Shown here one piece after another: positions 9,564 to 21,411 of a stretch of 37,121 nt of DNA. This stretch comes from a virus, in IMG/VR virus record IMGVR_UViG_3300028627_000020, positions 1-37,121 of that record; one strand, given 5' to 3'. Position numbers and translations under genes: made by a program. Positions within the stretch are counted from its first letter, which is position 1, and every line of letters begins with the position of its first letter. The notes under the pieces are model-generated. The model was given only the letters and a program-made list of their open reading frames with translations, was not told the DNA's origin and made no database searches.

Positions 9564-11285
9564 ATGACAATTGAACAAATTAAGCTAAAACTTGAAGAAT
9601 TTCGAACAATTTTTCTTGGTAAAAATTTTGTTTGGCGAAAAGGACAACAAGATGTAATAATAGAAGTTATTAAGACTTACTTTGATAAATCCAAGAATGT
9701 TGTAATAATAGATGCCCCAGTGGGTAGTGGTAAATCATTAATTGGTATGGCTGTTGCTTGGATTCTTAACGAACAAAAGCTTAAAGGATACATTCTTGCA
9801 TCTGATTTATCTCTTCAAGAACAATATGAAAAAGATTTTGATCGTTTTAATTTACACTGGGGTTCAATAAAAGGTGTGGATAATTATCTCTGCATTGACA
9901 ATATGGAAAAAAATTCCTTAGGAACTTGTAGAATTCGAAATAAACCCCCACGCACTATGCCTTGTTATGATTCATGTCCCTATTTTGTGGTTAGAGATTT
10001 AGCCTCAAAATCGCCTACAGCATTATTAAATTATGCATATTGGTTGATCATGCAAAATTATGTTAATAAAACTATTGATGAGCCTTTATTTCCGCCAAGA
10101 CATTTTACGATATGTGATGAAGGGCATAAAATTCTTGACATAATTCAAAACCATTATTCCCCAAGATTTGATCCTAAAACAACTGAAAAACTTGAGAAAT
10201 TAACCGAATTTTTTGCAGTTTTTAAAGTTAAAGATCATTATATAGATTATAGAAATATTCAACGATGTATTGAAAAATTATTTAAAACAGAAAATCAAGA
10301 TAAACTTCACGAGATACTTTTAGAAATAGAAGAATCATTTGAAGAATATCTTCCATCCATAGAAACATTAAAGACAAAGGTTAATGATGATTATCCTGAT
10401 ACTGATCCTCCAAAGGAATGGAGAGAAGCCCTTTGGTTATCAGACTGGTTAAAAGATTTGCATTGTAAAGTTGAAGACTTTAATGAAATTATAGACAAAA
10501 CTTCAGTAAGAAATATTGTTAAAAACCCTACAGGTGAAAATGAATTAACATTTAATTGTCTTCAGGAATCTTATATGATGCATAAGTATTTTCACCAATG
10601 GACGGGTTTTACAATTTTAATGAGTGCTACATTTGCAGACCCTACAAAATATTTAAAAAGCATTGCGCTTAAAGATGCTAAGTATATAAAAATGGAATCG
10701 ACTTTTGACTTCTCAAAATCACCAATATATTTTTATAATCAAAGAAGAATGACTTATAATCAAATAGACGAAAATCTTCCTTGGTTATTCAGTAAAATAA
10801 ATGAAATTCTTGAACATCATCATAATCAAAATGGTGTTATACATACTGCATCTTATGACTTAGCGCTTAAAATATTTGTAGGACTCAGTAATAAAAATAA
10901 GAAAAGAATACTTGTGTATAATGGTTCTGAAGAAAAAAGGCAAGTACTTGAAATATTAAAAAGAAATAAAAATAAAGTAATAATGGGTCCATCATTACTT
11001 GAGGGATTAGATTTAAAAGATGATTGGTCTCGTTTTCAAATATTTGCTAAAGTTCCTTATTTATCTTTAAGCGATAAATTTGTTGCTACAAAACTTAAAA
11101 TTGATCCCGATTGGTACCGGTGGAAAGCGATAATTAACGTACTCCAGGGCAGCGGTCGTTCTGTAAGAAGTGAAACAGATTGGGCTATTACATATATGCT
11201 TGATGGTGCATTAGCAGATTTAATTCATAATAATAGAAAAGCCTTTCCTCCCGAATTCATGAAAAGAATAGTGGTTGTTGAATAG
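9564..11285 (+). CDS. DinG/XPD-family SF2 helicase with Fe-S cysteines
   Basis: Q motif (KGQQDVI), DAPVGSGKS, KGVDNYLC...TC...PCYDSCPY, ICDEGH, MSAT, EGLD and QGSGRSVRS. Confidence 0.88.
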   Translation: MTIEQIKLKLEEFRTIFLGKNFVWRKGQQDVIIEVIKTYFDKSKNVVIIDAPVGSGKSLIGMAVAWILNEQKLKGYILASDLSLQEQYEKDFDRFNLHWGSIKGVDNYLCIDNMEKNSLGTCRIRNKPPRTMPCYDSCPYFVVRDLASKSPTALLNYAYWLIMQNYVNKTIDEPLFPPRHFTICDEGHKILDIIQNHYSPRFDPKTTEKLEKLTEFFAVFKVKDHYIDYRNIQRCIEKLFKTENQDKLHEILLEIEESFEEYLPSIETLKTKVNDDYPDTDPPKEWREALWLSDWLKDLHCKVEDFNEIIDKTSVRNIVKNPTGENELTFNCLQESYMMHKYFHQWTGFTILMSATFADPTKYLKSIALKDAKYIKMESTFDFSKSPIYFYNQRRMTYNQIDENLPWLFSKINEILEHHHNQNGVIHTASYDLALKIFVGLSNKNKKRILVYNGSEEKRQVLEILKRNKNKVIMGPSLLEGLDLKDDWSRFQIFAKVPYLSLSDKFVATKLKIDPDWYRWKAIINVLQGSGRSVRSETDWAITYMLDGALADLIHNNRKAFPPEFMKRIVVVE

Positions 11286-20433: not shown

Positions 20434-20467
20434 AAAGTATCAAAATTGATTTTTGGTATTATATTTA
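20434..20467 (+). promoter_or_regulatory. Putative bipartite promoter for tmRNA
   Basis: AAAGTATCAAAA...TTTTTGGT..TATATTTA, with a near-identical copy at 23612-23645 at the same 26 nt spacing. TATATTTA resembles the Bacteroidota -7 element TAnnTTTG. Confidence 0.55.
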
Positions 20468-20472
20468 AGATA

Positions 20473-20730
20473 TTGAGACACTCCGAAAGGATAGTTAGAG
20501 AGTAGGTATGTAAGACGCGGGTTCGATTCCCGCCATCTCCACGATTCTTTTCCGTTGGAAAGGAACTTATAAAGGCTTTGATGATTGAGCCAGCTAATCA
20601 ATCATAAATGGGGATGACTTGGCTTTGATTGCATACTAAGGGTAATAGCGAACATCTCAAGACGCAATTAAACGGCGAACAGTTTAAAGAGTATCGTATG
20701 GCAGCTTAAGAAGTTTGTATACGACAAATG
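20473..20730 (+). ncRNA. ssrA: Circularly permuted (two-piece) tmRNA
   Basis: T-arm GCGGG-TTCGATT-CCCGC (20517-33) and 3' acceptor CATCTCC-A (20534-41) lie upstream of 5' acceptor GGGGATG (20610-16). The 7 bp stem includes G3:U70. Helix 2 is GTATGTAA/TTGCATAC. Tag ORF GEQFKEYRMAA-stop at 20674-20709. Confidence 0.92.
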
Positions 20731-20733
20731 AAA

Positions 20734-20761
20734 AAAAGGGTGGAATTAATTCCACCCTTTT
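20734..20761 (+). terminator. Intrinsic terminator after tmRNA
   Basis: AAAAGGGTGGAA-TTAA-TTCCACCCTTTT. Confidence 0.8.
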
Positions 20762-20781
20762 AAATTAAACATAATTTATGT

Positions 20782-21411
20782 ATGTCTAAGCATTATTATA
20801 ATTATTTCTATCGAGTAGTAAATTTAATTACAGAAAACTTTTATTATGGGGTACATAAAACTTCGAACTTAAACGACATGTATATGGGTTCGGGCAAATA
20901 CATTAAAAATGCAATTAAAAAATATGGAAAAGAAAATTTTAAAAGAGAAATTTTAAAATTTTTTAATACATTTGAAGAAGCATTGGATTATGAAGCAAAA
21001 ATTGTAAATGATAATGTTTTAAACGACCCCAAATGTTATAATTTAAAAATAGGAGGCAAAGGCGGCTCAGCAAAGGGCAGGATTTCTCCTATGAAAAATA
21101 AACATCATTCTGAAATTACTCGAAAAAAAATTAGTAATAGCGAAAAAGGAATATCAAAAAATAAGGGTATGCGCATGTCAGACATTACTAAAAGAAAGAT
21201 TAGTCTTAATAATGGTATGCGTAATAATGGCTATTTAGTTTCAGGAAATAAAAATGGCATGTTTAATAAAACTAAGGAAAAAAATCCGAATTATAATACA
21301 ATTTGGATATACAATAAAGATTTAAACTATACAAAAAGAATAGATAAAACTTTATTAGATGAATATCTTTTAAAGGGATGGGTAAAAGGGAGAAAAACTA
21401 AAGCTACCTAA
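20782..21411 (+). CDS. GIY-YIG (Seg-like) homing endonuclease with NUMOD3-like motifs
   Basis: YFYRVVNLITENFYYGVH, YMGSG, KKYGKENF and YNLKIGG, then KHHSEITRKKIS and NGMFNK. Confidence 0.88.
   Translation: MSKHYYNYFYRVVNLITENFYYGVHKTSNLNDMYMGSGKYIKNAIKKYGKENFKREILKFFNTFEEALDYEAKIVNDNVLNDPKCYNLKIGGKGGSAKGRISPMKNKHHSEITRKKISNSEKGISKNKGMRMSDITKRKISLNNGMRNNGYLVSGNKNGMFNKTKEKNPNYNTIWIYNKDLNYTKRIDKTLLDEYLLKGWVKGRKTKAT

Follow-up and report, generated by a model that had tools for sequence, protein, structure and literature searches.

The window analysed here (the whole stretch of DNA, 37,121 nucleotides) is the entire 37-kb IMG/VR record IMGVR_UViG_3300028627_000020, whose CheckV completeness of 9% implies a genome near 400 kb. 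Its products include T4-like portal and gp15-like proteins as well as a helicase resembling DnaB and an ATPase resembling Rad50. Among deposited phages the portal protein is best matched by those of the Prevotella Lak megaphages (42-43% identity) and of the 462-kb uncultured LR756500.1 (38%), and DNA of the window occurs in many activated-sludge and wastewater runs. The open reading frames read through cleanly in code 11, so that this phage seems not to share the TAG recoding reported for Lak phages. A tRNA with a CTA anticodon (labelled Pyl) is called by ARAGORN in Lak-B4 (L046, 5272-5344), consistent with TAG recoding. The feature of interest is a tmRNA (ssrA) gene at about 20466-20761 on the plus strand, delimited by the match to Rfam model RF04321, the end-to-end alignment of the beta_tmRNA model, and aligned homologues; in the window and its relatives the gene lies some 0.2-2.9 kb downstream of the portal gene. 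A GIY-YIG/NUMOD3 homing-endonuclease-like gene (20782-21411) begins 20 nt past the tmRNA terminator.

We read the gene as a single precursor in which an acceptor piece, a spacer, a coding piece, and a terminator follow each other in that order. The acceptor piece probably begins near 20473-20478, the 5′ strand of the outermost inter-piece helix (the equivalent of helix 2c/d; partner 20655-20660). There follow a hairpin with a GAAA loop of the GNRA type (20482-20491; 3 bp in the window), the acceptor-piece strands of helix 2b (20494-20497; partner 20646-20649) and helix 2a (20506-20513; partner 20629-20636), a T-arm with a 5-bp stem and a 7-nt loop (20517-20533), and the 3′ strand of the acceptor stem with discriminator A (20534-20541). 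The next letters are CGA and CCA is not encoded; none of the examined members of the window's tmRNA family encodes it. The spacer (20542-20609; 68 nt), which presumably is removed, folds into two hairpins (20545-20553/20557-20565 and 20581-20588/20598-20605) with -15.7 kcal/mol and z = -2.05. At the predicted RNase P site the coding piece opens with the 5′ strand of the acceptor stem (20610-20616), which like the T-arm was found both by sequence check and by RF04321, followed by an analogue of the D-loop (20617-20628) that agrees with the RF04321 consensus, and by the strands of helices 2a (20629-20636), 2b (20646-20649), and the outer helix (20655-20660) with internal loops between them. The tag reading frame (20674-20709), as aligned by RF04321, consists of the resume codon GGC, the peptide GEQFKEYRMAA, and a TAA stop; it lacks a start codon, lies downstream of the 5′ half, and has the hydrophobic ending with Ala-Ala and a stop. 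Its last codons are contained in helix 5, a long hairpin of the minimum free energy (MFE) fold (20694-20724; arms 20694-20707/20711-20724) with the stop codon at its apex. The gene closes with a terminator-like G+C-rich hairpin and T run (20738-20761; hairpin 20738-20757) that aligns to the 3′ hairpin of beta_tmRNA; an A run precedes it, and the element reads both ways. The expected mature pieces measure about 72 nt (acceptor) and 150 nt (coding), about 220 nt in total. The tRNA-like domain (TLD) is thus permuted, its 3′ half (20517-20541) preceding its 5′ half (20610-20616), and is of the alanine type: a 7-bp acceptor stem including G3:U70 (G3 pairs with U20538), discriminator A, and a T-arm of 5 bp and 7 nt. 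Neither a T-arm nor an acceptor 3′ strand follows the tag in the window, as the one-piece layout would have it. The first-pass annotation had already placed the T-arm, both acceptor strands, the inter-piece helices, the spacer hairpins, the tag, and the terminator, and all of its coordinates were verified.

RF04321, the merged permuted-tmRNA model of Rfam, matches 20490-20709 in a full-length alignment (model positions 1-213) with 61.2 bits, above its gathering score of 47 and with E = 1e-9 for the window as a whole, and is the sole family to pass its threshold in the window. At relaxed thresholds beta_tmRNA (RF01850) aligns end to end with 20459-20762 (37.4 bits against a cut-off of 84; E = 3e-10). 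The alpha (RF01849) and cyano (RF01851) models have no match in the window at E ≤ 10, and the one-piece model RF00023 has none at its gathering score. ARAGORN makes no call on the window and also misses its close relative L101; it does report a permuted tmRNA for 14 of the 15 tested relatives and for four more. Its tag frame coincides with ours in 12 of the 14 and in all four extras, and starts one codon later in L067 and L078. Standard tools therefore detect the family while missing two of its copies: the warning that standard scans may miss the gene is borne out by ARAGORN on the window copy, but not by Rfam, which detects it, nor by ARAGORN on most relatives.

Relatives were collected by pattern scans of IMG/VR and by a portal-protein search, and genes like that of the window, in the permuted order, are present on at least 19 different phage contigs of IMG/VR. 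The family comprises at least two subfamilies: subfamily A, with the window, its near-twin L101, the group of L028-L033, L077, and L120, and L060, L070, and L086; and subfamily B, with L009, L063, L067, L078, L082, L089, and L103. L035 is a further variant outside both. Relatives whose portals are 64-67% identical carry the gene less than 3 kb downstream of the portal gene. A blastn search with three family members against 50,697 deposited phage genomes revealed no family member at that sensitivity; two queries matched the T-arm only (30-35 nt, in actinophage tmRNAs and one Acinetobacter phage) and the third matched nothing. In a pattern scan of genome contigs none of the at least 120 matches listed had tmRNA anatomy; one match among them was T-arm-like, with a frame devoid of a tag.

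For the covariation analysis the structure was written from the sequences, and pairs were counted on MAFFT alignments that had not been fitted to it. Counting was done per subfamily because a joint MAFFT alignment of both mis-registered the 5′ helices. In subfamily A, 95.5% of 528 cells are paired, which falls to 36-44% if the 3′ partners are slid; both sides are altered in 18 of 49 pairs, and none of the measures is matched by any of 500 shuffles. In subfamily B, 98.3% of cells are paired and six pairs have changed on both sides. The acceptor stem, the T-stem, helix 2a, and the outer helix, all proposed from the window by itself, are each supported in the relatives, as are helix 2b, the hairpin at 20482-20491, and the spacer hairpin before the coding piece. 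Covariation of the T-stem is seen across 18 sequences, four of its five pairs being altered on both sides family-wide. Helix 2a is 100% paired in subfamily A, with U-G, C-G, or U-A at one position and G-C replaced by A-U at another, and occupies the equivalent place in subfamily B with a different sequence. For helix 2b, 94.5% of cells are paired in subfamily A, and two pairs have changed on both sides in subfamily B, where one position of the outer helix is AU, CG, or UA in different phages. The GNRA-type hairpin is confined to subfamily A and absent from subfamily B; it has 4-5 bp in relatives, and its stems differ by changes on both sides. The inner stem of helix 5 is included in the subfamily A covariation, and the outer stem changes from A-U to G-C between the window and L077 (by eye). 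The G3:U pair is invariant (11 of 11 sequences in subfamily A and 7 of 7 in subfamily B). The hairpin immediately 5′ of the coding piece has five of eight pairs changed on both sides in subfamily A. As a whole the spacer has lengths between 16-17 and 135 nt, and the sequences of different groups are unrelated, which fits the expectation for a discarded segment. In an MFE cofold of the two pieces both the acceptor stem and the outer helix form, and other pairing takes the place of helices 2a and 2b; the cofold backs only part of the comparative structure, which we prefer.

These data bear on whether the locus is functional at all. In favour of a decaying remnant, or of a product of misassembly or recombination, are the lack of an ARAGORN call on the window, the neighbouring homing-endonuclease gene, and a 3′ tail that looks mosaic among relatives. 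Against this, every helix covaries, the gene has been kept in phages with portals as diverged as stated above, and the divergence of the sequences excludes that the relatives are copies of one recent insertion. The whole stretch is present in fourteen DNA runs. Parts of it occur in six metatranscriptome runs (assembled contigs only), and RNA-library contigs with exact matches from three studies cross the spacer or the whole gene at a depth of 3.5-8; contigs from independent RNA runs that bridge the spacer cover 20505-20646 (X15) and 20489-20801 (X17). An assembly artefact across 20541-20610, the weak point that had been named for the permuted reading, is thereby ruled out, and a functionless locus of either kind is extremely improbable. 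The RNA-library contigs, of low depth and possibly due to DNA carry-over, show the unprocessed arrangement. Very deep pieces of 29-32 nt at 20514-20545 were considered as a signal of processing and rejected: they represent the conserved T-arm common to the tmRNAs of other organisms, and some carry adapter.

The relatives also vary in several other respects. L101 (IMGVR_UViG_3300026159_000219, 10909-11221, minus strand) has the T-loop ATCGTAC instead of the usual TTCGA pattern on an intact T-stem, and the one-piece phage genes L069 and L073 have the odd T-loop ATCGATA. The spacers of L009, L067, L078, L082, and L089 contain two copies of a 20-25-nt A+T-rich motif with a TATAAT-like end, the second of which ends 0-2 nt before the coding piece; this motif might serve as a phage promoter or as a hairpin for processing. 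In L063 and L103 its place is taken by perfect hairpins. In L035 (3961-4262) and L070 (7053-7249) the spacers are just 16-17 nt, with the pieces nearly abutting, and the L035 gene starts about 200 nt past the portal stop codon. The one-piece viral tmRNAs L102 (10790-11200), L110, and L124 have the same 5′ motif and unusually long frames after GGC GAA: 33 codons in L102, where ARAGORN reads a 19-residue tag ending in VAA. Different endonuclease genes stand at the spot matching that of the window (in L028 and L032 downstream of the tmRNA). L032 and L033 agree almost completely as far as mid-tag, beyond which tag end, 3′ tail, and endonuclease differ; by its sequence this switch resembles a gene conversion, linked to the endonuclease, that affected the 3′ portion of ssrA.

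The window copy is strongly reduced. No pseudoknot was seen in it by inspection and nested-structure folding. Between the outer helix and the resume codon at 20674, where PK1 would stand in a standard tmRNA, there are just 13 nt; one-piece relatives have about 50 extra nt between helix 2 and the resume codon. Downstream of the tag there are only helix 5 and the terminator. The first-pass annotation had seen no room for pk2-pk4 in pieces totalling about 190-220 nt; PK1 is missing as well. By comparison, ARAGORN gives 288-432 nt for other permuted viral genes, and the sampled one-piece tmRNAs of Bacteroidota measure 350-394 nt. Judged by eye, subfamily B appears to keep one interleaved stem pair (a pseudoknot) after the tag, and in the L028 type the terminator loop may pair with the last tag codons. 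PK1 matters for E. coli tmRNA, and its absence may mean that activity is reduced or altered.

The loss of all pseudoknots, PK1 among them, speaks for a rival reading, in which the RNA is a mimic that does no tagging and instead absorbs host SmpB, AlaRS, or EF-Tu or blocks host trans-translation. Mycobacteriophage DS6A has a TLD-only RNA for which inhibition of tmRNA in E. coli is cited (PMC11915505, PMC4131195), ARAGORN passes over the window copy, and a search of the window and of four related contigs revealed no SmpB (PF01668), a null result that says little because all of these records are incomplete (9-64%). Huge phages with tmRNA and SmpB have been reported (PMC7162821). A pure decoy, though, needs neither a tag frame nor helix 5, and both have been kept. 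Throughout the family the frame opens with GGC GAA, runs for 10-11 codons, and closes with Ala-Ala-TAA, so that tag length, resume codon, ending, and stop are retained in every relative while the two Ala codons vary synonymously (GCA, GCT, GCG, and GCC); helix 5, which carries the stop codon, is likewise retained. We consider a mimic quite improbable. Much the best reading, on the combined evidence of the Rfam match, the covariation across the family, and the conserved tag frame, is the one first proposed: the gene is real, a circularly permuted and strongly reduced two-piece ssrA of a Lak-related jumbo phage, and it is very probably functional, with the steps from processing through tagging deduced from its sequence.

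If so, transcription of a single precursor would start at about 20466 and end with the terminator at 20757, and host tRNA-processing enzymes would cut this precursor, RNase P acting before G20610 and a 3′ nuclease after A20541. The CCA-adding enzyme would then complete the acceptor piece (about 72 nt), the 68-nt spacer would be discarded, and the coding piece of about 150 nt would be held to the acceptor piece by the acceptor stem and the helix-2 segments 20506-20513/20629-20636, 20494-20497/20646-20649, and 20473-20478/20655-20660. Host AlaRS would charge the resulting alanine-type tRNA-like domain, which has G3:U70 and discriminator A; with host SmpB and EF-Tu bound, the RNA would enter stalled ribosomes, and translation would resume at GGC 20674. 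The nascent chain would gain the Ala borne by the tmRNA and then GEQFKEYRMAA, and the ribosome would be released at TAA 20707. The limits of transcription, the processing sites, charging, the use of SmpB, tagging, and any benefit to the phage are what we infer from the anatomy; that the RNA might resist host nucleases or redirect proteolysis is speculation.

The origin of the permutation is illuminated by the Lak phages themselves. Lak-A1 (223026-223421), Lak-B4 (MK250023.1, 416686-417095; 1501-1910 of L302), and Lak-C1 (182229-182625) each carry a one-piece tmRNA gene (RF00023, 47-54 bits), which precedes the portal gene by about 370-400 nt. ARAGORN makes no call on these Lak genes and, like the one-piece tmRNA of LR756500.1, they are unannotated in the deposited records; RF04321 found no permuted gene in Lak-A1, B4, C1, LR756500, and LR756501. 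The Lak-B4 tag reads DDEIEFRMAA, and its last 18 nt differ from those of the window at one position (EFRMAA against EYRMAA). The second tag type of subfamily A, EMKMAA of the L028 group, is matched just as closely by EMRMAA in LR756500.1, whose tag GNNAEMRMAA belongs to a gene situated elsewhere, among tRNA genes. The permuted viral tmRNAs of alpha- or beta-like type present a different picture: 16 of the 17 called by ARAGORN have a GCN (Ala) resume codon and an AND-type or ADF tag (L007, in this set, is read with a GAT (Asp) start), and among the genes that the T-arm search matched a single one does not encode CCA. The tag ends shared with Lak, the adjacency to the portal gene, and the contrast with these AND-type, CCA-encoding viral genes together favour a permutation within the megaphage lineage. 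We therefore regard it as probable, though less firmly than the function of the gene, that the permuted form arose inside this lineage from a portal-adjacent one-piece gene; by the sequence features just given, the swap would most likely be separate from those of the known bacterial two-piece tmRNAs. The earlier suggestion of an independent viral permutation gains its backing from the portal-adjacent Lak genes with their near-identical tag ends, and may well be right.

An equally functional two-piece tmRNA could have been acquired horizontally in permuted form, from the alphaproteobacterial, betaproteobacterial, or cyanobacterial lineage or from their phages. Among viral contigs permuted tmRNAs are common and varied (26 loci, of which many have beta- or alpha-type scores), beta_tmRNA does align with the window gene end to end at a low E-value (3e-10), and subfamily A and the alpha-type genes both have U-A as the first pair of helix 2a. 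Yet the beta score is far below its cut-off and the alpha and cyano models are silent; resume codon, tag style, and missing CCA are unlike those of almost every alpha- or beta-like viral example, while the tag ends match the one-piece tmRNAs of Lak and LR756500 and the portal adjacency matches Lak. Capture is thus unlikely. It keeps some weight because the RNAs are short and the permuted viral tmRNAs form a broad continuum; with fast phage gene evolution trees would be weak, and the TLD by itself is too short and too constrained a comparison to settle ancestry.

The host of the phage with the permuted gene is inferred to belong to the Bacteroidota, from the kinship with Lak, shared tmRNA features, and the one-piece tmRNAs of that phylum. 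The sampled Bacteroidota tmRNAs have the same 5′ motif and usually no encoded CCA, several of them open the D-loop with the motif of the window, and their tags are GENNYALAA-like or end in AMAA. That Bacteroidota tmRNAs typically are of one piece, as had been assumed, is confirmed: RF00023 matched 57 of 61 sampled genomes, RF04321 exceeded its cut-off in 0 of 151, and a published table lists 24,380 standard against 48 permuted tmRNA genes. The full combination, namely an independent origin in the megaphages together with a pseudoknot-free tmRNA of about 220 nt that does tag and works in Bacteroidota-type hosts, lies just on the probable side. If true, a viral permutation whose one-piece ancestor survives in sister phages would cleanly exemplify convergence in the rearrangement of an RNA gene, with its intermediate steps open to study, and a tmRNA that tags yet lacks PK1-PK4 would offer a minimal substrate from nature with which to ask what the pseudoknots do. 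Since ARAGORN misses both the Lak one-piece genes and the window copy, surveys of huge phages that are based on it probably under-count tmRNA. What the window newly contributes is one more member of the family and the link to the one-piece tmRNAs of Lak.

Permutation of the tmRNA gene is known from three bacterial lineages and from protist mitochondria (PMC3985003). Two-piece tmRNAs in phages likewise are published, for T4-like myophages of aquatic habitats (the OM43 phage Melnitz, pelagimyophages, and related marine phages), and a 2021 survey classed 53 of 133 unique phage tmRNAs as two-piece by ARAGORN (PMC9004378); the two-piece phage tmRNA announced in the first-pass annotation is thus real here without being new to phages. 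Our literature search found no paper on a permuted tmRNA in Lak-type or Bacteroidota phages, and none on a pseudoknot-free two-piece tmRNA. The Melnitz-type genes resemble that of the window in being permuted ssrA genes of large lytic-type myophages, with a TLD made from two pieces, a tag frame, and a terminator. They are of the alphaproteobacterial lineage and detectable by ARAGORN, and that of Melnitz is associated with a glutamine riboswitch (PMC9004378), whereas the window has a Gly-Glu resume, no CCA, no detectable pseudoknot, and a Lak-related sludge megaphage as its bearer. With the bacterial two-piece tmRNAs (RF01849, RF01850, and RF01851), of which the Caulobacter type was shown to be functional (Keiler et al. 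2000, as related in PMC3985003), the window shares the order of acceptor piece, spacer, and coding piece, the joining of the pieces by the acceptor stem and helix 2, and a free 3′ tail on the coding piece. Those RNAs typically retain PK1 and PK2 flanking the tag in the coding piece (PMC3985003), neither of which was found in the window, and the window passes none of the three lineage models; its likely ancestor is a phage one-piece gene rather than a proteobacterial or cyanobacterial one. The tmRNAs of plastids and reduced endosymbionts have, like the window, lost most or all pseudoknots and kept the TLD (PMC3985003), but they are one-piece RNAs of reduced cellular or organelle genomes, whereas that of the window is two-piece and viral with a well-conserved tag. 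A further close system is that of the one-piece tmRNAs of Lak and LR756500.1. These are set apart by the standard gene order, a length of about 400 nt, some 50 nt at the PK1 position, and a long pseudoknot region; they agree with the window in phage lineage as judged by the portal, almost fully in the 3′ ends of their tags, and in not encoding CCA, and in Lak the tmRNA gene adjoins the portal gene as it does in the window, with the acceptor 5′ strand of Lak-B4 identical to that of the window.
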